From IMG/VR virus record IMGVR_UViG_3300025608_000006: a DNA stretch of 64,000 bases, one strand, 5' to 3'. The translations under genes were made by a program, and so were the position numbers. The notes beneath the pieces were generated by a model that did no database searches, had not been told where the DNA came from, and was given only the letters and a program-made list of their open reading frames with translations. Below are positions 42,247-53,309 of the stretch, piece after piece. The first letter of the stretch is position 1. The number at the start of each line of letters is the position of its first letter. This stretch comes from a virus. Lineage: Duplodnaviria; Caudoviricetes.

Positions 42247-42612
42247 TTAGTCTGCTCTACTGCCTGCGTAAGCTGTGAAGCCTGCTGCTGAGAACACCTT
42301 AGCTGCTGCGTATGCACCCTGCTCCTTGGTGTACATACACTGTGTGCCTAGCCCACTGGGGTTCCATATGCTGTATGCTCCTGAGTAGTCCTTCTCAAAG
42401 CCTGCTGCCTTCATACGCTTGCCCAGCTTGGTGTTGCCTTTGATGCCGTAGATGTTAACCCAAGCAAAGCCACAGTAGCCTAGCTCACCGTTAGCAGCAA
42501 TGCTGGCTTCAGCTGCATCACGTGCATGCTGTAGTGCCGCAGCCTTAATAGTTTGCAGGTCCTCTACAGTGAGGTCGTTGAGTACAGTAGTTGATGTGTT
42601 GATAGTAGTCAT
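42247..42612 (-). CDS. early hypothetical protein
   Basis: Own promoter module; GYCGFAWVNIYG. Confidence 0.7.
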   Translation of the reverse strand: MTTINTSTTVLNDLTVEDLQTIKAAALQHARDAAEASIAANGELGYCGFAWVNIYGIKGNTKLGKRMKAAGFEKDYSGAYSIWNPSGLGTQCMYTKEQGAYAAAKVFSAAGFTAYAGSRAD

Positions 42613-42674
42613 TTGCTATGCTCCTTAGCGTTAATGTATATACAGTATAGCACCTGTGTGCTGTGTGTCAACCT

Positions 42675-42947
42675 CTAATATTCGTATACAGTTGGCATTG
42701 TCAAGCCCTGGCCTGCACAGTAACGATCCAGTTCCTTGATCACTCTGCCATAGTAGTTGTACTTGTTCTGTGCTTGTGTAGCTGAGATCTCTCCATCGCA
42801 GTGTAGGTTCTCTGGGCTTAGGTCACTGTCTAGGCTACGTGCTAGATCGTTTACTTGTGTTTGGCTAAGTGGGAAGTTGATCTGCGGTGAGTTAAAGAAG
42901 CTACCCCAGGTGTTCTTCTGGTCGATGTATGCTTGTAAGTTTTTCAT
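42675..42947 (-). CDS. early hypothetical protein
   Basis: Own promoter module; LSPENLHCDGEIS. Confidence 0.7.
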   Translation of the reverse strand: MKNLQAYIDQKNTWGSFFNSPQINFPLSQTQVNDLARSLDSDLSPENLHCDGEISATQAQNKYNYYGRVIKELDRYCAGQGLTMPTVYEY

Positions 42948-43012
42948 AGTGTGCCCTCTTTGTTTAACTTATAATACTACTATAACACCAGTTGTTGAGT
43001 TTGTCAACCGTT

Positions 43013-43798
43013 TTAGTAAGAAATTTTTGCCTCATCCAAGCGAGCAGTGATAGCATCGCCGAACTGCCAACCTTCTGGCATAGTGGTGCGCCATCCCAGC
43101 TCAGTGTCAAGACGCAGTGCATCCTTGGGATCGATATAAGCAATAGCAAGATTGTCTTTGAGCATCTCTGCAACTTGTTCTACACTAGCTCCTGACTGAA
43201 ACATTTCAACACTATGCTTGAACAGTAGATCACAAGGTACAATGTGCTCACGGTATGTGCGAACATCTGTAGGTTCATTAATAGTAATATACCGATCCAC
43301 GCAGTCGAACAAGTGACGATGTAGCAATATTGTATTACCATGTTTAGTCACATCTTCAATAAACCTTGCTACGATTTCAAAGTATGGTTTGCCAGCACTA
43401 TCAAATTTCTTCCAACTGCTGGCACCAGCTGGATCCAACAAGTCACAGTCGCTGATCAATTCATACAGTGCAAGGAAGTCATCATCTAGATTGTCGGTTT
43501 CGTAGCGCAGGTTCTTTTGTGAATCGTCTACAGCAAACCCATTATCAGTTAGGTACTCGACTACAATTGGGCGACTCTGATCACCTTTGCCTCCTGGTAG
43601 TCCAACTCCAATCATCAATCGATTGCGAATGTAAAGAACTTCCAATACAACACCTGATTTAAGTGTTTGAGTATAGCAACGCTTGCCTTGACGGTCTTGT
43701 TTACCGCTACCTTCTACTCCTTCGATACTAAATCGGATACTGCTATCCTTTTGATTGATACGAGCGATAAAATCTTTGATACGTTCTTGAGGAGTCAT
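43013..43798 (-). CDS. early hypothetical protein
   Basis: True start MTPQER at 43798 behind a promoter module; C-terminal REHIVP. Confidence 0.65.
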   Translation of the reverse strand: MTPQERIKDFIARINQKDSSIRFSIEGVEGSGKQDRQGKRCYTQTLKSGVVLEVLYIRNRLMIGVGLPGGKGDQSRPIVVEYLTDNGFAVDDSQKNLRYETDNLDDDFLALYELISDCDLLDPAGASSWKKFDSAGKPYFEIVARFIEDVTKHGNTILLHRHLFDCVDRYITINEPTDVRTYREHIVPCDLLFKHSVEMFQSGASVEQVAEMLKDNLAIAYIDPKDALRLDTELGWRTTMPEGWQFGDAITARLDEAKISY

Positions 43799-43864
43799 CT
43801 TGTTGCCCTTTGCCCTAACTGTTATATACAGTATAGCATCTATCTGCTGATTGTCAACCATTAT

Positions 43865-44120
43865 TCAAAAGAAAAAGCCCGGAGCGTATTGGACGAGGGC
43901 ACATCCTGCTCCGGGCTATCCTAAAGGTTATAGAGCGTGAGGGCATACGCTGTTCTATAACCTGTTACCGCACTGTTCTTGGTGACAGCTTCGGCTTATT
44001 GCAGTCTAGGGACGAGGGCACATCCTTCGACTGTTTGAGCTAGCGCGAACGAGGGCACATTCGTTCTAGCTCAGGTTGGACTGCACCGCAGGGTGCGCTA
44101 CAGTCCTACAGTGTTGCGGA
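43865..44120 (-). ncRNA. Putative multi-hairpin regulatory RNA with UGCCCU(C) loops
   Basis: Four hairpins with different stems share one loop (plus-strand GAGGGCA at 43895, 43939, 44014, 44051); the last hairpin is followed by a U-tract on the minus strand. Confidence 0.6.
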
Positions 44121-44123
44121 GCT

Positions 44124-45125
44124 CTATGCTCGACGCATCACCGTATTCTCTGCCATCGCTTCCCACTTGTCGGGGAAAGCGCCAGCTAGGTCTGCTACCT
44201 TGAGCACTGTGCGCAGCGATAGCTCACGCAGCTTGCTCTTGTTGATCTCTACGAAATCCATGATCTCCGTCTTGACTTCTTCTGACAGTTTACGGTCATC
44301 CAACATGCCATCTTGTACCACTTGCTTGATGCGCAGTACTTTGTCCTTGTCACTATCAATAGTCAAGTCCATGTAGTGACAGCGGCTCTCCAGTGCTTCC
44401 AAGTGCTCACGCAGCTTGCCTTTTACCTTATCGAACTTCAAGTTAGTGATAAAGATAGCACTAGCTTCGAACTTGAACTTGTCTGGCACACCTTCGTTGC
44501 GCAGCTTGAAGCTGTCAGTGTTCCAGTGGATCCAACGATTCTTCTTTGAGTCCAATGCTGCTTTCAAGATGTTCAAGCTTAGGTCATCTTGGAAGATGCT
44601 GTCACAGTCATCGAACACCACTACCTTGCCTTTGTCTGCCATGTTGAACAGTTTGCAGTAGAGTCCAATTGGGCTCATAGCGCCTTTGATAACTTCGTGT
44701 GTCTTGCCTGCACCTAGTGTTTCCATAGTTGCATAGCGATCCAGCACTTCTTCAACACCATGGCTCTTGCCCACGCCCGGAGGACCTGAAACGATCATAG
44801 CGCGAACGTTTCCTTTCTTTACCGCTTTGGTCATGTCTTTGAGCATATCAAAACGTTCGCGGATGCGCTCTACAATCTCAGCGTCTGACTCCTCAGGCAA
44901 ATCGTTCTTCTCTGCTTCACCGACCAACTCGTAGTCCTCCGGGCTGCTGCATTTGATCTTGATGTTGCGGTTGGGCAAGCCTGTCACAGGAGTTGCGTCA
45001 ACTGTGACTGCGCCGCCGCTGGTTCCCATAGTAAACTCTTTGGCCATTGGGAATACAATACCGCTCATGTCTGTTTCTTTTCCACGTAGTCTATAAGTAC
45101 CATTTACAATCTTAATGTTCTGCAT
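44124..45125 (-). CDS. AAA-family P-loop ATPase
   Basis: SGPPGVGKS Walker A, VVVFDDCD Walker B, FITN sensor, ALESRC arginine finger. Confidence 0.85.
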   Translation of the reverse strand: MQNIKIVNGTYRLRGKETDMSGIVFPMAKEFTMGTSGGAVTVDATPVTGLPNRNIKIKCSSPEDYELVGEAEKNDLPEESDAEIVERIRERFDMLKDMTKAVKKGNVRAMIVSGPPGVGKSHGVEEVLDRYATMETLGAGKTHEVIKGAMSPIGLYCKLFNMADKGKVVVFDDCDSIFQDDLSLNILKAALDSKKNRWIHWNTDSFKLRNEGVPDKFKFEASAIFITNLKFDKVKGKLREHLEALESRCHYMDLTIDSDKDKVLRIKQVVQDGMLDDRKLSEEVKTEIMDFVEINKSKLRELSLRTVLKVADLAGAFPDKWEAMAENTVMRRA

Positions 45126-45193
45126 GTGTTTGCCCTCATGTGTTTGTTTAACTTATATACAGTATAGCATCAATCTAACGTTTGTCAACCACT

Positions 45194-45370
45194 TTATGTA
45201 AATATTAGATAAAGAATTCCAAGTACTGCAATCACCACAGCAGGTGGTACCAGTGTGAAGATCAAGCTGTGAACACACTGTTCCCAAAAGCCCACGTACT
45301 CGTTGCAGTTGTGACACTGTGGAGCAAAGAAGTTCTTATCCATTTGATGACAGTTTGGACATACGCTCAT
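45194..45370 (-). CDS. small Zn-ribbon membrane protein
   Basis: MSVCPNC...QCHNC followed by a hydrophobic C-terminal helix; AGGAG RBS. Confidence 0.55.
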   Translation of the reverse strand: MSVCPNCHQMDKNFFAPQCHNCNEYVGFWEQCVHSLIFTLVPPAVVIAVLGILYLIFT

Positions 45371-45371
45371 C

Positions 45372-45509
45372 TTATAATACTCCTACAAAGGATGGTTGAA
45401 GGACAGCACCTGCCCACATAAGTCCTGCGCCAAGCCATATCAGTATTGCACTCAGCAAGCCTGTTTGCCACAGCACCAAAAGGATTACTAGTTTGATCAG
45501 CGTTCCCAT
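45372..45509 (-). CDS. small membrane protein
   Basis: MGTLIKLVILLVLWQTGLLSAILIWLGAGLMWAGAVL. Confidence 0.5.
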   Translation of the reverse strand: MGTLIKLVILLVLWQTGLLSAILIWLGAGLMWAGAVLQPSFVGVL

Positions 45510-45510
45510 C

Positions 45511-45786
45511 TTAGCGATCCTTGCGATCAATAGTGATCGTTCCCTGCATCCATGATACAATCAACTCACGGTCTTCATCTGAGAAGTCTTTAGCAGTTGT
45601 ACCAAACGTAGCGCCAAAGTGTGTGAGCGCATTGCCCACATGGCTTAGGTTGTTGAGTGTGCGCAAGCCATCTTCAGTCACAGGGCCAAGTCCGTGAATC
45701 TTACCGTACTCTTCTGAGTAGTTCATCATCTCACGTCCGATAGTAGCCAGTTGCTTCTGTTCAGTTGTTGCTTCGAAAAATGCCAT
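45511..45786 (-). CDS. early hypothetical protein
   Basis: Own promoter module. Confidence 0.65.
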   Translation of the reverse strand: MAFFEATTEQKQLATIGREMMNYSEEYGKIHGLGPVTEDGLRTLNNLSHVGNALTHFGATFGTTAKDFSDEDRELIVSWMQGTITIDRKDR

Positions 45787-45896
45787 TGTGTTTGCCCTTT
45801 ATCTAATTGTTATATACAGTATAGCTTCACTTGCGGAGTTTGTCAACCCCTAATTTGGAAGTCCGCCATTCCAGTCATCACAGGGATCATCATACA

Positions 45897-46115
45897 TTAT
45901 TCGTCCTCCTGTTCACGACCTTGTGCAAAGTCCAACAAGTCTGCTGCCAATGCTGCTGCTTGTGCGCGAGTCAACTGCACCCAGCTAAACGGGCCGCCTT
46001 CGCTCCAGCTGCCTACTTTGCTCTGTGTCAATTGCACACAAGTGCCTCGGTCGCTGCCTCCAAAGAAGCGTGTCATTGTTACGCCTTCTGCGTGTGTTTT
46101 CAATTCTGTTGACAT
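45897..46115 (-). CDS. early hypothetical protein
   Basis: Own promoter module; RFFGGSDRGTCVQLTQ. Confidence 0.65.
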   Translation of the reverse strand: MSTELKTHAEGVTMTRFFGGSDRGTCVQLTQSKVGSWSEGGPFSWVQLTRAQAAALAADLLDFAQGREQEDE

Positions 46116-46180
46116 CGTGTGCTCCTCTAATGTCTAACTTATACATACACTATAGCACCACTGTGCTAGTTTGTCAACCA

Positions 46181-46345
46181 CAAAAGTAGCAGGAGGAGTA
46201 CTTTTTTTGATCGAGGGCACAATCAAATGTTCCTCTACTCCTGCTATTTGTCCGGGCTCTGGGGCAAGTCTATTAATAGTCCCCAGCGCCGACAGTCGCT
46301 ATGTGATCTGTGCTTCACGGTTATTAGCACGAGCGCTGTCTACTC
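46181..46345 (-). ncRNA. Putative structured RNA 3' of the tRNA cluster, ending in a UGCCCU-loop hairpin
   Basis: Stems GACAG/CTGTC, GTGCT/AGCAC, CTGGGG/CCCCAG and TAGCAGGAG/CTCCTGCTA enclosing TTTGAT-TG-TGCCCT-CG-ATCAAA. Confidence 0.5.
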
Positions 46346-46349
46346 AGTT

Positions 46350-46426
46350 TGGCCTCCCCTGCAGGATTCGAACCTGCGACCCACAGCTTAGAAGGCTGTT
46401 GCTCTATCCAGCTGAGCTAAGGAGAG
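46350..46426 (-). tRNA. tRNA-Arg(UCU)
   Basis: CTCTCCTTAGCTCAG...ACAGC-CTTCTAA-GCTGT...GGTTCGAATCC...GGCCA; encoded CCA. Confidence 0.95.
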
Positions 46427-46430
46427 TATA

Positions 46431-46507
46431 TGGTGGGCCCACCGAGACTCGAACTCGGAACCTACGGATTATGAGTCCGGTGCTCTAACCAATTGAGCTA
46501 TAGGCCC
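46431..46507 (-). tRNA. tRNA with CAU anticodon, probably Ile2 (lysidine) rather than Met
   Basis: GGGCCTATAGCTCAATTGG...CTCATAA...GTTCGAG...GGGCCCACCA; acceptor stem resembles bacterial tRNA-Ile2. Confidence 0.85.
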
Positions 46508-46513
46508 TGTCTT

Positions 46514-46598
46514 TGGTGCTCCCTGTCGGACTTGAACCGACATGCCTTGCGGCGACAGATTTTAAGTCTGTTGTGTATACCTATTCCACCAAGGGAGC
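46514..46598 (-). tRNA. tRNA-Leu(UAA)
   Basis: 85 nt with long variable arm; ACAGA-CTTAAAA-TCTGT; encoded CCA. Confidence 0.93.
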
Positions 46599-46612
46599 GA
46601 ATTCTGTTTTAC

Positions 46613-46771
46613 TTATGCCCCATCATCCATTTCTAATTCAAACTCTGAAGCCATATCTTCTTCAATAGCTTCAGCAAGTGCTTCATACTTGGCTCGCAGT
46701 TCGCTTACCTGCCGCAGCGACAGCACACGATCCAAGTCTTTGATAACATCTTGTAGTGTAATATAATCCAT
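46613..46771 (-). CDS. small acidic hypothetical protein
   Basis: MDYITLQDVIKDLDRV...; TAATG coupling with the upstream gene. Confidence 0.55.
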   Translation of the reverse strand: MDYITLQDVIKDLDRVLSLRQVSELRAKYEALAEAIEEDMASEFELEMDDGA

Positions 46772-46968
46772 TACTGCACCCATACGTGGTTGAATTTGGT
46801 TGGAAGGTTATCACAGCTGAAGATCTCATCTGTGTAGTTAACGACTTTGACGCACTCATTTGTTGCGTAGCTAACATGGACATCTGGCGCACTCAACGCT
46901 GAGTTCATTGCGTATCCTAGTCCTGCTAACATAGTCCCTGCAAACGCGATAGTAAAAACTGCTTTCAT
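46771..46968 (-). CDS. early membrane-anchored hypothetical protein
   Basis: Own promoter module; N-terminal hydrophobic helix; CVKV...C. Confidence 0.65.
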   Translation of the reverse strand: MKAVFTIAFAGTMLAGLGYAMNSALSAPDVHVSYATNECVKVVNYTDEIFSCDNLPTKFNHVWVQ

Positions 46969-47042
46969 TGTCGTTGCCCTTTTGCTTAACTGTTATATAC
47001 AGTATAGCGCCGAAACGCTATACTGTCAACACCTAATTTGCC

Positions 47043-47291
47043 TTATTCAGCAAAAACTTTTGCACGTGATCCTGTGATGTCACGAGCACTTACTGCATAG
47101 CGAGCCTTGCCCGTTGTAGCAGTGTCCACACGCACGTTCAATCCAGCAGCTCGCAAGTCGCTGATTCGTGCAGTTAGATTTTGGATTCCGAAACGTGCCT
47201 TTGCATCAGCAGCAGTGATTGTCTTGCCAGTGCCACGCAGGTAAGTTTCAAGGAATGCAGTTTGGTTTGATTTAATAGTAGTAAAGCTCAT
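47043..47291 (-). CDS. small helix-turn-helix DNA-binding protein
   Basis: LETYLRGTGKTITAADAKARFGIQNLTARISDLRAAG winged-HTH-like pattern. Confidence 0.65.
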   Translation of the reverse strand: MSFTTIKSNQTAFLETYLRGTGKTITAADAKARFGIQNLTARISDLRAAGLNVRVDTATTGKARYAVSARDITGSRAKVFAE

Positions 47292-47390
47292 AATATGTAC
47301 CCTTTAGAAAGTTTAGTTTAAAGTTTGCCTATCAACACTTTTTGCTCCAGTGTCTATATAGTATAGCACCTTTGCGGGATATGTCAACCC

Positions 47391-47585
47391 CTAATTGAAC
47401 ATATCGTCCCAAGCATCTTCAGTGATGCCAGTCTTGATGAACTCACGCTCACCAGCTGTTAGTTGGGGGAATGCATCCTGTACCAACAGTTTGCCTTCAA
47501 AGTAGGCTTCAACCTGCTCGTAGGTTACGTCAAGATCCATGGTGTTCTCTTGGCCGTTGAATGGATTAGTACGTGTGATTTTCAT
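47391..47585 (-). CDS. early hypothetical protein
   Basis: Own promoter module; QDAFPQLTAGEREFIKTGIT. Confidence 0.7.
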   Translation of the reverse strand: MKITRTNPFNGQENTMDLDVTYEQVEAYFEGKLLVQDAFPQLTAGEREFIKTGITEDAWDDMFN

Positions 47586-47650
47586 AGTGTTTGCCCTTTT
47601 CCCTAACTGTTATATACAGTATAGCATCAATTGAGGATTTGTCAACCTCT

Positions 47651-47848
47651 TTATGCAGTTTTAGTGCCAGTCTTTAGATTATATTCAAAGCGCAGACCGC
47701 CCAGTACATCACGACAGCGGATGTAATCATAGTAGCCTTGTGCCTTCATTGCTTGATGAACAGCCTTGCCATCCGCAGCGTTTGATACAGTGTCTACCCA
47801 CTGCTCTGCACCACCGTCTTTGATTCCGAATATTTTGTAGCTTCTCAT
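47651..47848 (-). CDS. early hypothetical protein
   Basis: Own promoter module. Confidence 0.65.
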   Translation of the reverse strand: MRSYKIFGIKDGGAEQWVDTVSNAADGKAVHQAMKAQGYYDYIRCRDVLGGLRFEYNLKTGTKTA

Positions 47849-48062
47849 CGTATTGCCCTTTGCCCTAACTGTTATATACAGTATAGCACACTCTACGGAT
47901 TTGTCAACCCCTAATTGTCACTAACAATAAATTCACGCTCTTCTGGCAGGTATGCTATCAGCACATCTTTGGGCACTCGTTGCAGCATCTCGTAGAGTGC
48001 AGTTGTGTCCCGATCTTCGAGGTCGTTCTCTATCTGGTGAATCACTTCGTCCCACAGGTCCA

Positions 48063-48344
48063 TCATAGCGCATACTCCTTATTGGATTTCAACTGCCACT
48101 TCTCTAACACAGGCAAGCCGTATTCATCTTCGTCCACAACCACATAGGCAACTGTCTTCTTGACTGTGCCATAACGGTAGCCAGTCATGCCAGCAACACC
48201 GCCACCACCTACCCATATCTTGTGCAGCGTGTCCTCATTGCAGTTGTTCAACGGATCATCGTTGACACTATACTCGAAGTAATTGCCTGTGTCCTTCTCA
48301 ACGAAGCAACCTATTGGATCTTTGGTGTAGGTGTAGTATGCCAT
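48063..48344 (-). CDS. early hypothetical protein
   Basis: Own promoter module; TVKKTVAYVVVDEDEYG. Confidence 0.65.
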   Translation of the reverse strand: MAYYTYTKDPIGCFVEKDTGNYFEYSVNDDPLNNCNEDTLHKIWVGGGGVAGMTGYRYGTVKKTVAYVVVDEDEYGLPVLEKWQLKSNKEYAL

Positions 48345-48443
48345 GTCTTGCCCTCATTGCCTAACTGTTATATACAGTATATGCTCTAATAGGGGATCTG
48401 TCAACCATTATTTGGAAAAAAGATCCCCTTTAGAATCAATAGC

Positions 48444-49010
48444 TTACAAGCCTGTGGGTGCTAGGTTTACTTCTTCGTCTTCATCCTCTTCTTCTTCCAT
48501 TTCCTCATACTCTGCAAGACGCTCGTCTAGAGCATATTCGTCCACAAGATACTCTGGGATCATGTTGCGAACAGTGTCTGAGGTTGCACCTGAATAGTCA
48601 TAGTGGTCGTCAGCACCTTCTGAATCCCAGTAGCCAACGAAGCACATACCGCCTTCTTCGTAGTATGCTTCTAGGTATACGCCGTCCATGTCATCACAGA
48701 ACGCTGAGTAAGCGTCAATGGGCGGGCTCCAAGCCGAATCAAACCAACCTGTGATCTCACTAGTGCCGTCACCGTTGTCTGTGAACTCAAGACCTTCAGT
48801 ATCAACATCCCACTTGGTCCCCCAGTTAGTGACACACCAGTCATACCAGTTAGGCCCGTCACTAGGAGCAGTTGTCCCTTCTAGTTCCTTAGGCATAGGA
48901 ATCATTGCGTTCAACAAGCCGCTGCCTTCTTGATTAGCGTCTTCCCACAGTTCCTTGATAGTCTCTGTGGAACCTTTGATTGTGATTGAGTTGTTGCACC
49001 AGTTAGGCAT
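48444..49010 (-). CDS. MPNWC-type (DUF1281/YubB ferredoxin-like) protein
   Basis: MPNWCNN, WYDWCVTNWGTKWD, FDSAWSPP, YYEEG. Confidence 0.7.
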   Translation of the reverse strand: MPNWCNNSITIKGSTETIKELWEDANQEGSGLLNAMIPMPKELEGTTAPSDGPNWYDWCVTNWGTKWDVDTEGLEFTDNGDGTSEITGWFDSAWSPPIDAYSAFCDDMDGVYLEAYYEEGGMCFVGYWDSEGADDHYDYSGATSDTVRNMIPEYLVDEYALDERLAEYEEMEEEEDEDEEVNLAPTGL

Positions 49011-49161
49011 AGTCAGTCTCCCCCATAAGTTCTGTATCTACAATATCGGAATGTTCAAACGAGTAATCACACTCGCTCATGATGTCCTGGATGTCAGCGT
49101 CCCTAAGGACCTCCAACGCCACTGTGACATAAACTGTCTTGGTGTTGTCAGCGCCTGCCAT
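49003..49161 (-). CDS. small acidic hypothetical protein
   Basis: MAGADNTKTVYVTVALEV...; coupled to both neighbours. Confidence 0.5.
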   Translation of the reverse strand: MAGADNTKTVYVTVALEVLRDADIQDIMSECDYSFEHSDIVDTELMGETDYA

Positions 49162-49379
49162 TAGCAGTCCTCCCCAAATGCGTCATACAGTTCTGTCAAG
49201 TAATCAACGTCTGGCTCATCGTCTTCGAAGAACCGCTCGCTCAACTCATTACAGTCAAGCATATCCTCAACGTCATCGTTGCTCATATACTTGAGCGCCA
49301 TAGTCAGCATGTCTTCTGCTGACACCATGCCGTTCTCAACCAACTCAAGTGCGATATCTCTGTAGTTTGTCATTTGCAA
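49161..49379 (-). CDS. early hypothetical protein
   Basis: Own promoter module; LKYMSNDDVEDML. Confidence 0.65.
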   Translation of the reverse strand: MQMTNYRDIALELVENGMVSAEDMLTMALKYMSNDDVEDMLDCNELSERFFEDDEPDVDYLTELYDAFGEDC

Positions 49380-49447
49380 ATGCCCTCTGCTTTGTTTAAC
49401 TTATATATACACTATAGCACCGAATGCGCTATGTGTCAACCTCTTTT

Positions 49448-49651
49448 TTAAGCTATAGCTTCTTCTTTTGTTTTGCGATGATAGAACGCTTCCAAGTCTA
49501 CGCAGCCGTCTACTTCAAGACCTGCGAGCAGCTGGGTGCGTTCTTGTTCATCGAATGCTTGATGATATTCATCCGGAGTATATTCACTAGCAGCGCAGTA
49601 GTTGGCGCCTTCCCAAACTAGTACAAAACGGTTGAAACGTACTTCTGACAT
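49448..49651 (-). CDS. early hypothetical protein
   Basis: True start MSEVRF behind a promoter module. Confidence 0.6.
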   Translation of the reverse strand: MSEVRFNRFVLVWEGANYCAASEYTPDEYHQAFDEQERTQLLAGLEVDGCVDLEAFYHRKTKEEAIA

Positions 49652-49723
49652 AGCAGTAATCCCTCTGCGTTTGTTTCTATACAAGTAGTATAACACAGCC
49701 CGAAGGCTGTGTCAACCTTTTTT

Positions 49724-50206
49724 TTAGATGTCGTAGCCTTGTGCTTTGAGGCGTGCCACTTCAAGTGTTACACGAGTCTCCAAGTCGTCAAAGATTGGAA
49801 AGCCAAGTGCGTCCGAACCTGCATTGTAACGGTCATGCACAATCCAACCTGCGGCAGTGTGCAAGTAAAAGTATTCGCAGCCGCTGCCTGTGTAGTATTC
49901 AACAAACTCCTGCACAGTGTCAAACTCGACTGCTTCTGTGTTGCTTTCGCCTCTGTCACGTCCGTAGAATACAGTAACGCCTTCCTCTGGAGTTGCAAAG
50001 CTGTGTCCGCTGCCTGGCATTGGAAAAATTTCTTCTGCCATGTAGCTTTGATCGCCTAGCTCTACCATCTGTGCAACTTTGCGAGCTTGCTGGTAGTGCT
50101 CCTGCAACGTGCGTCCTGCGCCTGCTACATAGCCATCATAGTGTGAATACTTTGCACGGATTTTGCCTTCTGGTGTTTTGTAACCAATTGCTGAACGAGT
50201 TCCCAT
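49724..50206 (-). CDS. early hypothetical protein (MGTRS-type)
   Basis: Own promoter module; MGTRSAIG...HYDGY...YGRDRGE...EYFYL. Confidence 0.7.
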   Translation of the reverse strand: MGTRSAIGYKTPEGKIRAKYSHYDGYVAGAGRTLQEHYQQARKVAQMVELGDQSYMAEEIFPMPGSGHSFATPEEGVTVFYGRDRGESNTEAVEFDTVQEFVEYYTGSGCEYFYLHTAAGWIVHDRYNAGSDALGFPIFDDLETRVTLEVARLKAQGYDI

Positions 50207-50285
50207 TGCATATGCTCCTTATGCGTTTGTTTAACTTATACATACACTATAGCACCTGAATGCTATAGTGTCAACCTTTTTCTGC

Positions 50286-50561
50286 CTATGCCTCCAAACT
50301 TTTTAGCATGCTGGCTGTGACCTTCCACTTGCCCTGCGTGGGCGAGTTTACAATCACTGTCTTGCGATTGATTTTCTCAACCATTCCCGTCACAGTGCGT
50401 CCACCGCGTCCTGTGAAGCTTACAGCATCGCCTACAGTGAGTGAACGTGCTGTAGCTCGTGCGTTGAATGTGCGTTGGAGTTTGATTGCTTCAACCACTT
50501 GGTTGATCTCATCGTTGTTCATGTTGCGGATTGCTGTGATTGCGGTTTGTACGTTGTTCAT
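50286..50561 (-). CDS. early hypothetical protein with SH3/KOW-like C-terminus
   Basis: Own promoter module; LTVGDAVSF...GMVEKINRKTVIV...WKVTASML. Confidence 0.7.
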   Translation of the reverse strand: MNNVQTAITAIRNMNNDEINQVVEAIKLQRTFNARATARSLTVGDAVSFTGRGGRTVTGMVEKINRKTVIVNSPTQGKWKVTASMLKSLEA

Positions 50562-50604
50562 CTTGTAGCCCTCTTTGTTAACTTATACATACACTATAGC
50601 ACCA

Positions 50605-50823
50605 CTATGCTAGAATGTCAACCTCTTTTTCAAACTTTTCTACAGTTTCTTCAAATTGTTTTGCAAGCGATACCAAGTTCATCATAGCAAACTCAGCTTC
50701 CATGCTGCCTGCTTCTGTTGTGTCCAGTATGCGGATGCGCTCTGCCATCATGCCTGCGATTGCTTTATATGCACCGCACTCACGTGCTGTCTTCATGCTT
50801 TGATCAAAAAATGTATCGTTCAT
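50605..50823 (-). CDS. early hypothetical protein
   Basis: Own promoter module; C-terminus overlaps the next promoter. Confidence 0.65.
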   Translation of the reverse strand: MNDTFFDQSMKTARECGAYKAIAGMMAERIRILDTTEAGSMEAEFAMMNLVSLAKQFEETVEKFEKEVDILA

Positions 50824-50887
50824 CTTGTTGCCCTCTTGCTTAACTTATACATACACTATAGCACCAGTCGTGCTAGTTGTCAACTCC

Positions 50888-51280
50888 TTATTGCAAGAAA
50901 TCTTCCTTTAGGATCTCCAGCATACGAACTGCTTCTGTACGTGCTTGATCAATAGCTTCAATTGCCATGCCGTTGATAACGCCGTCTGTTTTGTCATCTT
51001 GTGCCAGCCAATCTGCAGGTGACTCTGCTACAATTGAGCCTAGGTAGCTCTCGCCCATAACCTTGCCGTCATACTTGGCTTGCACACGAACGATCATGTG
51101 CTGCCAAAAGCCCGACTCCAAGTTTTCAATCAACTCAGGGTAGTAGTCTGCCTCAGTGTCAAACAACAGATCCAACTGAGTGTCGTCTGGAGCGAACGCA
51201 ATCTCTACTGTGAACTGCTCGTGGTCGAACTCTTCCTCTACGTAGAAGTTGTCGTTGTTTTTGAAAAATGCGTGTGTCAT
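50888..51280 (-). CDS. early hypothetical acidic protein
   Basis: Own promoter module. Confidence 0.65.
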   Translation of the reverse strand: MTHAFFKNNDNFYVEEEFDHEQFTVEIAFAPDDTQLDLLFDTEADYYPELIENLESGFWQHMIVRVQAKYDGKVMGESYLGSIVAESPADWLAQDDKTDGVINGMAIEAIDQARTEAVRMLEILKEDFLQ

Positions 51281-51429
51281 GTGCTTGCCCTTTGTTCTAA
51301 CTATACATACACTATAGCACAGGTGTGCTGGGTTGTCAACCTCTAATTTAAACTTTTTTCTGAGGACCCAACAGCGGGGCCTACAGGTGTGTACACTATA
51401 GCACAGTGTGCGCTATAGTGCAAATTATT

Positions 51430-51675
51430 TTATAGCTGCTCTAGTGCAGCTTCTATTATATTATGCGCACAGCTGTCTGTTGCAAAGCCCTCCTCTTGTG
51501 CAAAGTCGACGCTGCTGCTGCACATAATAGTGTCTGTGTTTACATTAACGTTGTTTGCTGTAAACAGTGCTGCAAGTTGTGCTGCTGTGTATGCAGCGCC
51601 TACAACTGTGTTGTTTACTGTTACAACAATTGCAGCGTCTGTTGCGTTTAGGAATACGTAGTTTGTGTTTTGCAT
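51430..51675 (-). CDS. early hypothetical protein (GA/TC-poor segment)
   Basis: Own promoter module; CSSSVDFAQEEGF. Confidence 0.6.
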   Translation of the reverse strand: MQNTNYVFLNATDAAIVVTVNNTVVGAAYTAAQLAALFTANNVNVNTDTIMCSSSVDFAQEEGFATDSCAHNIIEAALEQL

Positions 51676-51804
51676 AATGTGCTCCTCATATGCTTGTTTA
51701 ACTTATACATACACTATAGCATATGTATAAGCAGTTGTCAACTGAAAGTAATTGTTGGAAAACAAGCACTTAGCATTTTTTTACTAAGTGCTTGTTTTTG
51801 TTGG

Positions 51805-52074
51805 TTAAATTGCGCAATGTACAATGCGCAAATAACGTGCTGTGCTAGGCATAGCGTATGCAAACGTTTTAGTTGCGTGTACACATTTAACGTTTAGTGC
51901 TTGCTGCAACTGCTGCAATACACTAGGAGGCATGCTGCTTACAGTAAAGCACAAGTTGCGCAGTTTAGGATTTACACACATATTTGTATAAGTGTGCTTG
52001 CTTACAGCAATATTGTTTTGCTTTAGGATGTTACGTACAATGTTACGTGCTGTTTTAGTAGTAGTATTTTGCAT
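51805..52074 (-). CDS. early hypothetical protein lacking Asp/Glu/Gly/Trp
   Basis: True start MQNTTTK behind a promoter module. Confidence 0.55.
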   Translation of the reverse strand: MQNTTTKTARNIVRNILKQNNIAVSKHTYTNMCVNPKLRNLCFTVSSMPPSVLQQLQQALNVKCVHATKTFAYAMPSTARYLRIVHCAI

Positions 52075-52165
52075 ATAAAGCCCTCTATGCTTGTTTACGT
52101 TATATACACTTATAGCACAAGTGTGCGCTGCTGTCAAGTGTTTTTTTAACAGCAGCACAACTTTT

Positions 52166-52369
52166 TTACAAGTACTTGCTTTCGTTTACCTCGTCGTTGC
52201 TGTAGCGTGTAGCTGCTACAATTGCAGCATAATCGGAGTTTGCCGCTAATAGCTGCTGCATAACAGCAACAAGCTCCTCTGCTGTGTCTATGCACAGTGT
52301 TTGCGTTTGTGTTACGTACTCGAGTTGTTGTGCGCAGTGCTGTAGTGCTAGTGCTTGTGTAATTTGCAT
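52166..52369 (-). CDS. early hypothetical protein
   Basis: True start MQITQ behind a promoter module. Confidence 0.55.
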   Translation of the reverse strand: MQITQALALQHCAQQLEYVTQTQTLCIDTAEELVAVMQQLLAANSDYAAIVAATRYSNDEVNESKYL

Positions 52370-52461
52370 AGTTTGCCCTCTATGTTTGTTTACGTTATAA
52401 CTTAATATAGCACAAGTGTGCGCTGCTGTCAACTGAAAAATGCTAACAGCAGCAACTTTTT

Positions 52462-52755
52462 TTATGCAACTTGCATACTTGTAATAGTGTCTGCATAGTA
52501 GTGCAGCATGCTATACATGCATTCTCTAACAGCAGTATCCGCAGCACTGTTTAAACAGGCAGCTGCTAAACTGTTTACTGTTGTGTGCTGCATGTAGTTG
52601 TCGTATAAAAATTGCATTTTATAGCAGTTGTCTAATATGCAGTAGTCGTTTGCTTCCGCTACGCTGTCATGTGCAGCGTGTGTAATTGCTTCCGCATAGC
52701 TTGCAATTGCGCTTGCTACTACTTCCGCATAAATTGCTTGTTGTGTGTTTTGCAT
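52462..52755 (-). CDS. early hypothetical protein
   Basis: Promoter module with a TAGACA -35 variant. Confidence 0.55.
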   Translation of the reverse strand: MQNTQQAIYAEVVASAIASYAEAITHAAHDSVAEANDYCILDNCYKMQFLYDNYMQHTTVNSLAAACLNSAADTAVRECMYSMLHYYADTITSMQVA

Positions 52756-52892
52756 AGTAATGCCCTCTATGTTGTTAACTTATACATACACTATAGCATA
52801 TGTTTGTGTGTTTGTCTAGCGAAAAGAAGTGTTGGAAAACAAGCACTTAGCATTTTTTTTGTAAGTGCTTGTTTTTGTTAATTAAATTATTT

Positions 52893-53126
52893 TTACGTTT
52901 GCCATGCAACTACACTGTCATTTTGTATAGCAACACGTACATTTTCTAATGCGCCATTTGCTGCACTACGCTTTGCAAAAAAGTGCATAATGTCTCCGGC
53001 ACTGTGTTTTGTTTTGTTGTAAAAATTAAAACTTGTGTATACACACTTGTCTACTGCACAGTAAGCAACAGCAGTTGCGTTAGTAGCAAGGTCGGATACA
53101 TTATTAGCATTTGTGTAACGTAGCAT
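52893..53126 (-). CDS. early hypothetical protein
   Basis: Own promoter module. Confidence 0.55.
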   Translation of the reverse strand: MLRYTNANNVSDLATNATAVAYCAVDKCVYTSFNFYNKTKHSAGDIMHFFAKRSAANGALENVRVAIQNDSVVAWQT

Positions 53127-53309
53127 ATTATAGCCCTCTATTTTGTTAACTTGTACATACAGTATAACACAAACAGCACAGTTGTCAACTGAAAAATGAA
53201 CAAAAATGAACAGCTAAGTCATTGACTGCCAACAGTTTTAAATTTTATTTTAGCCAATACAATCAAACACTTAGCAGCACCTCGGGCACAAATGTGAACA
53301 CAGTCGGCA

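Follow-up and report, generated by a model that had tools for sequence, protein, structure and literature searches.

A UGCCCU-Loop Hairpin Behind a Phage tRNA Operon as a Candidate Arm of an Anti-Shine-Dalgarno RNA Acting on Early Genes

The tRNA Operon and Its Non-coding Trailer

The DNA studied here is a 64,000-nucleotide stretch (IMG/VR record IMGVR_UViG_3300025608_000006), called the window below, from a marine myovirus that has not been cultured and shows features of both T4-like and jumbo phages. Genes in the window include those for a tail sheath, a large terminase, a UvsX-like recombinase and a DnaB-like helicase. The closest cultured relatives are PA5oct-type phages, with protein identities of only 27–46%, and the tRNAs were the sole matches when 45000–47500 was compared with cultured phages by megablast. 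The sequencing runs that contain the window, DNA as well as RNA, are marine or estuarine metagenomes. Small early genes are arrayed on the minus strand from about 54 kb down to 42.6 kb, each early cassette having its own near-consensus sigma70 promoter, with 12 promoters at 11/12 consensus positions in 6 kb. This early region is made up of repeated modules that clearly exchange sequence, and most early ORFs near the loop hairpins described below are without known function.

The locus of interest lies within this array and comprises the following features, given in their order on the minus strand:

46514–46598, minus strand: tRNA-Leu(UAA), first of a three-tRNA operon (ARAGORN; Rfam tRNA, 60 bits)
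46431–46507, minus strand: tRNA-Met(CAU) (ARAGORN; Rfam tRNA, 72.2 bits)
46350–46426, minus strand: tRNA-Arg(UCU) with encoded CCA, the trailer following from 46349 (ARAGORN; Rfam tRNA, 66.6 bits)
46247–46345, minus strand: conserved two-hairpin RNA element (fold, alignment with the related phages L003 and L074, covariance model R1)
46180–46251, minus strand: hairpin C, a long putative terminator hairpin with a hexaloop (MFE and centroid folds; homologues with covarying outer stems)
46214–46219, minus strand: the hexaloop UGCCCU, extended by the closing C at 46213 to UGCCCUC, which is complementary to GAGGGCA
46181–46186, minus strand: CUUUUG, a short U-tract right after the stem (sequence)
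46149–46177, minus strand: next early promoter, TTGACA-17-TATAGT, 11/12 consensus positions, extended TG (sequence)
45897–46115, minus strand: first gene of the next cassette, 72 aa, with leader AGAGGAGCACACG

A transcript from the promoter at 47029 would contain, in order, two small ORFs, tRNA-Leu, tRNA-Met, tRNA-Arg and a non-coding trailer of ~170 nt, in which (46181–46349) no minus-strand ORF of at least 40 aa was found. The minus strand from 46349 to 46170 folds at −58.3 kcal/mol (z = −3.78), and the trailer consists of three hairpins, A and B at 46340–46255 and C at 46251–46180. No promoter or terminator was found on the minus strand between the tRNAs and the trailer element, the nearest upstream promoter being the one at 47029. 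The sequence is consistent with the trailer being co-transcribed with the tRNAs, and also with its release by tRNA 3′ processing, both of which had been suggested in the initial annotation of this DNA. Further, the trailer lies between the last tRNA, which ends at 46350, and the putative terminator hairpin, which ends at 46180, without a promoter of its own, a placement that fits the 3′ETS type. The tRNA cluster is conserved in relatives, with permuted gene order.

At the gathering threshold only the three tRNAs pass an Rfam scan of the whole window, and a permissive scan (E ≤ 10) of 43800–46700 returned nothing on 46181–46349 or on 43868–44123, the second region being the 3′UTR array introduced below. 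The scan used Rfam 15 and covered c4 (RF01695), RsaE and manA (RF01745) among all families; the element is not a member of any of them, whereas a match to an unrelated family would have counted against the functional loop proposed in the initial annotation. The metatranscriptome material over 42500–48500 (X18, X20, X21, X22) consists of assembled contigs, which carry no ends, strand or levels. Assembled cover of 46118–46318 is thin and comes partly from a ~90%-identical relative. Short contigs over the four-loop array (43938–44137) have a higher k-mer depth than their neighbours in two studies, which is no more than a weak hint.

Hairpin C and Its Place at the End of the Operon

The initial annotation had described a long stem (TAGCAGGAG at 46187–46195 and CTCCTGCTA at 46238–46246) with an inner stem (TTTGAT at 46206–46211 and ATCAAA at 46222–46227) that presents the 10-mer CGAGGGCACA at 46212–46221 and is followed by a short U-run. 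All of these coordinates are correct, and the U-run is CUUUUG (46186–46181). Written as RNA, the outer stem of hairpin C is UAGCAGGAG/CUCCUGCUA and the inner stem UUUGAUUG/CGAUCAAA. The UGCCCU hexaloop is open in the ensemble, with an opening cost of 0.0 kcal/mol in all five hairpins of the window.

The next promoter begins 3 nt past the CUUUUG of hairpin C. Because the U-tract and then this promoter come directly after the stem, hairpin C is positioned as an operon terminator, that is, as a putative terminator of the tRNA operon that abuts the next promoter. The hairpin is long and stable, but it has 4 U only and its stem is interrupted, and for this reason a consensus terminator scan did not list it. 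Relatives show ACUUUUUCGG or AUAUUUUUUG in the place of the U-tract, and homologous hairpins have 5–6 U.

A Conserved Two-Hairpin RNA Upstream of Hairpin C

The nested stems that had been noted at 46253–46345, upstream of the loop hairpin, are real and conserved. However, they form a module separate from hairpin C rather than a part of the same structure. The module comprises hairpin A (~46340–46291) and hairpin B (~46290–46255), the latter with the invariant loop ACUAUUAAUAGACUUG; this loop of 16 nt (ACUAUUAAUAGAYUUG) contains the palindrome CUAUUAAUAG. In L003 and L074 the element is situated between tRNA-Arg and tRNA-Leu; an alignment of the three phages has 25 consensus pairs, of which 7 show compensatory changes. 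The covariance model R1, which was built from these three sequences, scores 98.9 bits here and 111–113 bits in L003 and L074. According to this model L083 and L084 contain the complete element as well (44.9 bits, E about 1e-7), whereas only marginal matches were obtained in L090 and L100. The immediate 3′ neighbour of the element in L083 and L084 is a manA-RNA match that falls short of the gathering threshold (47.3 against 55.2 bits), and a permuted tmRNA gene is ~0.6 kb away. Rfam has no match to 46345–46247.

T4 encodes two stable RNAs, C and D (rnaC, rnaD), which are small structured non-tRNA RNAs from within or behind its tRNA cluster and are co-processed with the tRNAs; no function is known for them. 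They are the best analogue of the element at 46345–46247, which lies between tRNAs in L003 and L074, although the element here has its own invariant loop. Since it is flanked by tRNAs, the two-hairpin element would be excised as a discrete RNA of ~100 nt, by analogy with T4 RNAs C and D. Neither the distinctness of this element, nor the putative terminator role of hairpin C, nor the complementarity between the loop and an early GAGGGCA box that is described below had been noticed in the initial annotation.

The Same Loop on Unrelated Stems

The 10-mer CGAGGGCACA occurs exactly at four places on the plus strand, 43894, 44013, 44050 and 46212. The earlier view that hairpin C is a separate instance of this loop, borne by a stem unlike the others, is supported. 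With at most one mismatch there are 7 matches against 1.79 expected, a number that none of 100 shuffles reached. The core GCCCUC has only 5 sites on the minus strand in 64 kb, all five at hairpin tips; the four besides hairpin C fall in 44070–43870, within a sister element:

43868–44123, minus strand: sister element in the 3′UTR of an AAA-ATPase gene (45125–44124), with four hairpins that have the same loop (fold, conservation)

This element folds at −111.4 kcal/mol (z = −7.17). Three of its loops read UGUGCCCUCG and one reads UAUGCCCUCA; its last hairpin is a putative terminator that is followed by a promoter, and the other three of the four loops are not in terminators.

The AAA-ATPase gene has 51 related loci in IMG/VR, and the comparative set consisted of ~45 related marine phage contigs. 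All relatives with at least 65% AAA-ATPase identity have 1–4 hairpins with a (U/A/C/G)GCCCUC loop past the stop codon of this gene; in most cases the last of them is a terminator with a promoter behind it. RUGCCCUCR is found no more than 1–4 times per relative contig of 100–275 kb, and in G001 (= L010) and G002 (= L002) most of its sites lie just downstream of the AAA-ATPase gene. In local folds, 116 of the 149 distinct GCCCUC sites on transcribed strands are in apical loops, compared with 26 of 149 random sites (Fisher p = 1e-26). Two pattern scans also gave chance matches: those to GGATGTGCCCTCGTCC in L053, L054, L055, L063, L064, L073 and L077 fell in coding regions of unrelated GC-rich phages and were discarded, and matches to GACTATTAATAGAYTTG were mostly chance ones in AT-rich coding DNA.

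Behind the tRNAs, a GCCCUC-loop hairpin comes first after the last tRNA in 10 of 25 distinct trailers, whichever tRNA is last. Post-tRNA homologues that keep GCCCUC were found in L003, L009/L030, L012, L016, L018, L032, L065 and L074. The outer stem of hairpin C is visibly homologous to those of L003, L018, L012 and L032, with compensatory pairs (UAGCAGGAG/CUCCUGCUA, UACAGGGAG/CUCCCUGUA and UACGGGGAG/CUCCCCGUA), and the outer stems of the homologues covary (CAGGGAG/CUCCCUG, CGGGGAG/CUCCCCG, GCGGAAG/CUUCCGC); in L009, L016, L065 and L074, by contrast, the post-tRNA loop sits on unrelated stems. The comparison of tRNA-downstream regions that the initial annotation had called for thus finds the loop kept on stems that covary or differ. 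Because the loop is kept, the stems differ or covary, and apical loops are in excess in the relatives, it is well supported by these comparisons that selection acts on the loop rather than on the stems, as had been proposed from the single sequence, and the post-tRNA homologues retain GCCCUC even where their stems change with compensation.

The initial annotation had also held that loss of the loop from homologous regions in which the stem is kept would speak against such selection. One relative, L017, is an informative exception: after a tRNA rearrangement, tRNA fragments and a relocated tRNA-Arg stand in place of the loop and of the stem's 5′ half, and the 3′ half and the U-run remain. Since L017 retains the 3′ stem half and the U-run without the loop, the terminator does not need the loop. 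The post-tRNA copy is, moreover, absent in several close relatives (L001, L005, L010, L013 and others), and this absence, together with the loss in L017, indicates that the post-tRNA copy is dispensable or redundant, presumably because the 3′UTR array is retained.

These observations bear on the simplest account of the hairpins, namely that they are ordinary intrinsic terminators or 3′ stabilisers, the loops of which are alike by descent or by gene conversion between cassette boundaries and have no sequence-specific function. Such an account would be in keeping with the U-tract and promoter that hairpin C abuts, with an early region of repeated modules that exchange sequence, and with the terminator that L017 has kept without the loop. 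However, descent or conversion would also preserve the stems, whereas 6–10 nt of loop are kept between dissimilar flanking stems in phages in which the neighbouring protein is only 65–90% identical. Loop sequence is irrelevant to termination, and a proportion of 116 apical loops in 149 is far above background. We consider this account very improbable.

A Complementary Box in Early Leaders

The complement of the loop is found in front of early genes. AGGGCA is over-represented on the minus strand, almost always 3–8 nt before an ATG that follows a promoter, and 11 of the 12 minus-strand GAGGGC sites of the window are in this ribosome-binding position, 3–8 nt before a start codon. The candidate targets are as follows:

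42950–53140, minus strand: ~20 promoter-proximal early leaders with (G/A)AGGGC(A/U) 3–8 nt before ATG (sequence)

The box is doubled in two of the leaders (43816/43809 and 47866/47859), and the match to the loop extends to 9 nt in the leader at 42957 (GAGGGCACA). We counted k-mers, with no motif presupposed, in 257 distinct promoter-proximal leaders of the window and its relatives, each of them lying behind a TTGACA-N16-18-TAYANT promoter. The top 6-mer is GAGGGC (141) and the top 7-mer is GAGGGCA (106), and the commonest loop word, UGCCCUC, is the exact reverse complement of that 7-mer. After AGGG, C is conserved at 83% and A at 72%, though neither pairs with the anti-Shine-Dalgarno sequence of 16S rRNA. 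Internal cassette genes have canonical GGAG or UAGGAGA sites, and the same holds for replication and structural genes on the plus strand.

The complementarity is specific to this class of genes. The median duplex energy of the loop 10-mer is −12.7 kcal/mol with 25 early initiation regions and −4.0 kcal/mol with 31 plus-strand genes (MWU p = 3.6e-10). The leaders that contain the target boxes are short (~25 nt) and open, and opening a target site costs 0.8–3.2 kcal/mol. Opening and duplex energies were combined for these comparisons, and dimer folding of the RNAcofold type was avoided, since a loop-to-linear kissing interaction is a pseudoknot there. The sequences hence contain what an anti-Shine-Dalgarno seed consists of, a single-stranded loop and complementarity to the ribosome-binding region of a defined target set.

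Loops and GAGGGCA leaders also co-occur across phages: both are present in all relatives with at least 65% AAA-ATPase identity and both are absent at 45–49%, which is effectively one evolutionary event. A search of the 45–49% clade for an alternative pair of loop and box found none, the phages of this clade having plain terminators and AT-rich leaders with neither motif. Within phages, no covariation was seen between the base 5′ of GCCCUC (U/A/C/G) and the base 3′ of GAGGGC. Because the early leaders belong to paralogous promoter-leader cassettes, the conservation of GAGGGCA is possibly due in part to shared descent or to a translational requirement.

Instead, the GCCCUC loop might be recognised by an RNA-binding protein of phage or host, whatever stem carries it, and its complementarity to the ribosome-binding box would then be incidental. 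As candidate binders one may think of a translational repressor of the operator-binding type, a processing enzyme, or a termination or antitermination factor. A kept loop on freely varying stems is also the mark of hairpins that proteins recognise, such as the MS2/PP7 operators and lambda boxB. The sites are clustered and lie at transcript 3′ ends and terminators, and an unrecognised binder could be among the nearby early ORFs, most of which have no known function. What recognition by a protein leaves unexplained is the exact reverse complementarity between the loop 7-mer and the commonest 7-mer of the 257 leaders, a coincidence of ~1 in 16,000 for one motif pair. Further, a Pfam scan of 18 early ORFs revealed no RNA-binding or RegB-like domain, finding only AAA ATPase, one wHTH and one DUF1281_C. 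Three of the four loops of the 3′UTR array, moreover, are not in terminators. A protein reader of the loop, of whichever of these kinds, seems to us fairly unlikely.

The box lies at about +10 to +20 of ~20 early promoters, and an HTH protein (47291–47043, PF14090) is encoded in the early array. One could suppose from this that GAGGGCA/TGCCCTC is a double-stranded DNA site bound by a phage protein at early promoters, and that the hairpin copies are decoys or cruciforms. Yet strand specificity is strict, with GAGGGCA in leaders and UGCCCUC at hairpin tips, which a double-stranded site would not need, and the fixed spacing of 3–8 nt to the ATG points to translation. A function at the DNA level is extremely improbable.

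The loop could also act in cis. On read-through of the terminator it would pair, in the same RNA, with the ribosome-binding box of the next cassette ~60–90 nt downstream, and the downstream gene would be translated only from the transcript of its own promoter. The layout invites this interpretation: both loop hairpins that bear a U-tract (43.9 kb and 46.2 kb) come directly before a promoter and leader, the same layout is found in relatives, and the weak 4-U tract suggests leaky termination. The leaders concerned contain AGGGCAAAGGGCA or GAGGAGCACA, with pairing energies to the loop of −11 to −14 kcal/mol; behind hairpin C, the leader AGAGGAGCACACG of the 72-aa gene pairs with UGUGC-CCUC via one bulge at −14.4 kcal/mol. 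However, three of the four loops at 44 kb do not adjoin a leader, and in L009, L012, L016, L030 and L032 over 150 nt separate the post-tRNA hairpin from the next promoter, and other elements intervene. Several loops per RNA better fit a multivalent molecule that acts in trans. We regard insulation of the downstream gene in cis, and with it the dependence of that gene on its own promoter, as decidedly unlikely.

A Possible Anti-Shine-Dalgarno Switch

We propose that hairpin C probably forms one arm of an RNA switch by which the translation of early genes is silenced. To the more specific statement, that an anti-Shine-Dalgarno RNA carried in the tRNA trailer and in the 3′UTR represses the early gene class, we assign a probability of roughly 0.5 from the sequence comparisons above. 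Hairpin C would then have two roles, as the terminator of an early transcript with two small ORFs and three tRNAs and as an anti-Shine-Dalgarno arm, one of five such arms that the phage would place at the 3′ ends of early transcripts. In almost all early promoter cassettes, the leading gene would have the (G/A)AGGGC(A) box as its weak Shine-Dalgarno sequence; the open loop UGCCCU(C) would base-pair with the box and block 30S binding, and translation of the early class would be turned down or later shut off. We infer pairing in vivo, and repression as the direction of the effect.

The ~170-nt trailer (46349–46181) might be freed from tRNA-Arg by ordinary tRNA 3′ processing and persist as a stable structured RNA beside the four-loop 3′UTR (44123–43868). 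Canonical UAGGAGA sites pair poorly with the loop, so that the remaining genes would escape. Such a system could provide class-wide negative feedback, or a shut-off once early transcription stops. Since the loop RNAs would come from the same early promoters as their targets, the timing must be assumed, through accumulation of the stable RNA. It is also possible, at a little below even odds, that in a clade of marine T4-like jumbo phages the stable multi-loop RNAs of the tRNA trailer and the 3′UTR serve as a decoy anti-Shine-Dalgarno sequence and switch off the entire early class post-transcriptionally, via its private GAGGGCA box.

Comparison With Known Systems

RNAs that pair with ribosome-binding regions are known from other settings. 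The c4 RNA of phages P1/P7 is matured by the tRNA-processing enzyme RNase P. Its loops pair around the ribosome-binding site (PMC12197685), and pairing of the loop at the ribosome-binding site is likewise what is proposed here. However, c4 acts on the single operon icd/ant in the immunity of a temperate phage, with two defined loops in one conserved fold, whereas the element described here has no RF01695 match and displays one short motif on unrelated stems, with ~20 early leaders as its presumed targets, in a lytic T4-like jumbo phage.

Among the Firmicutes, C-rich-loop sRNAs (RsaE/RoxS, RNAIII hairpins 7/13/14, LhrC) use several unpaired UCCC loops to pair with the G-rich Shine-Dalgarno sequences of numerous mRNAs, and the seed may lie in a terminator hairpin. 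These sRNAs are host-encoded, serve metabolic or virulence regulons and have family-specific folds, none of which was matched in Rfam; by contrast, the phage loops display GCCCUC on a tRNA trailer and a 3′UTR, and the candidate targets have a dedicated non-canonical box.

For the genomic position of the trailer, the counterpart is 3′ETS-leuZ of E. coli, which Lalaouna and co-workers reportedly described in 2015 as the RNA that separates an operon's last tRNA from the intrinsic terminator; it is said to be released by tRNA processing and to act by base-pairing. It differs in that it sponges host sRNAs (RyhB, RybB) rather than binding ribosome sites of mRNAs, has no repeated loop motif and is unrelated in sequence.

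The likeness to regulation in T4 is of another kind. The T4 endoribonuclease RegB cuts GGAG in early Shine-Dalgarno sequences (PMC9409239). RegB and the repressor RegA resemble the proposed system in bringing about a class-wide post-transcriptional shut-off of early genes via a signature in translation-initiation regions, but they are proteins, while the effector proposed here is an RNA and the signature GAGGGCA. Display of one short loop motif on many hairpins with different stems is seen in CsrB/RsmZ, in which the motif is related to the ribosome-binding site (PMC4005645). The CsrB/RsmZ loops, however, carry the Shine-Dalgarno-like GGA and titrate CsrA/RsmE, whereas the phage loops carry the complement of a Shine-Dalgarno sequence and would bind mRNAs directly.

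In the open literature that we searched, there is no precedent for an RNA of a lytic phage that is complementary to a private Shine-Dalgarno box of the phage's own early class. We tentatively class the element as a base-pairing anti-Shine-Dalgarno RNA because its proposed mechanism resembles that of c4 and the C-rich-loop sRNAs, with neither an Rfam match nor a precedent in that literature. As such it would be known in kind, and the temporal switch of a whole early class, to which we give slightly less than an even chance, would be the new part.

Implications for Phage Gene Regulation

If the pairing is real, a lytic phage would time a whole gene class by a small RNA motif instead of a protein. 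The early class would have its own ribosome-binding “address,” the complement of which would be expressed on stable hairpins. Such a system would correspond to T4 RegA/RegB but consist of RNA only. It would also be the first RNA switch described from a lytic phage that acts on a whole temporal class, and it would add a new layer to the early-to-middle transition of T4-type phages. It would likewise explain the conserved non-canonical box in the early leaders of this clade. The pair itself, a 7-nt box and a complementary loop, is compact and portable, and could serve as an orthogonal translational off-switch. The role of non-tRNA RNAs in phage tRNA clusters is a largely unexplored question, for which this system offers a concrete, testable example, and, if the proposed mechanism is true, it would give tRNA trailers and 3′UTRs in phage genomes a function.

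The two-hairpin module and the tRNA cluster

A conserved RNA module of two hairpins with the invariant loop ACUAUUAAUAGAYUUG, for which a search of Rfam returned no matching family, is present in the window and in loci of related marine phages (L numbers):

46247-46345, minus strand: two-hairpin module in the window
L003, 4136-4236: relative copy
L074, 66-166: relative copy
L083, 11283-11392, minus strand: relative copy
L084, 9942-10051, minus strand: relative copy

The module is flanked by a tRNA on both sides in L003 and L074, and in L083 and L084 it lies immediately 5' of a sub-threshold match to manA-RNA (RF01745; 47.3 bits, where the gathering score is 55.2), with a permuted tmRNA gene close by.

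Comparison of L003, L005, L009, L010, L012, L016, L017, L018, L020, L030, and L032 gave at least five different orders of the Leu-UAA, Met-CAU, and Arg-UCU tRNAs, and tRNA 5'-half fragments are also present in L017 (5218-5290). The sequence comparison therefore argues that the tRNA cluster is a recombination hot spot.

Surroundings of the GCCCUC hairpins

About 60-130 nt past the post-tRNA hairpin with GCCCUC in its apical loop, a second conserved non-coding block, ...CAUCA(G/A)UYYAUUAUAACAY...GUUGUCAACC, was found in L009, L012, L016, L030, L032, and L065; it is not present in the window. In many relatives (L065, L074, L080, and others), the AAA-ATPase homologue ends inside the first GCCCUC hairpin, its stop codon forming part of either the stem or the loop (e.g., AACGUUAAGCCCUCAACGUU); judging from this arrangement, a ribosome that terminates there would be positioned over the first of the loops.

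In the metatranscriptome studies X18 and X21, the 3'UTR with four such loops (window 43938-44137) was recovered in short contigs of 165 and 197 nt, at a k-mer depth of 33-54 vs. 2.5-10 for adjacent coding pieces, which could reflect a stable RNA, although contigs cannot prove stability.

Box variants in early leaders

The ribosome-binding box of early genes (GAGGGCA/AGGGCA) is doubled in tandem (UUAGGGCAAAGGGCAA) in two leaders, and a minority carry a hybrid box, (G/A)AGGAGCA(CA):

43809-43821, minus strand: doubled-box leader
47859-47871, minus strand: doubled-box leader
51675, 50206, 46115, and 42612, minus strand: hybrid-box leaders
43013-43861, minus strand: ORF, with its longest-ORF start at 43861

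The hybrid box still pairs with UGUGC-CCUC, via a one-base bulge, at a computed -9 to -14.6 kcal/mol, so the GCA(CA) tail is common to both box types. The 43861 start falls within the preceding unit's terminator and promoter, and the true start is probably the ATG at ~43801, which comes after the promoter (43857-43830) and the doubled AGGGCA box. With two boxes in tandem, a leader would lend itself to bivalent binding of an RNA with several loops.
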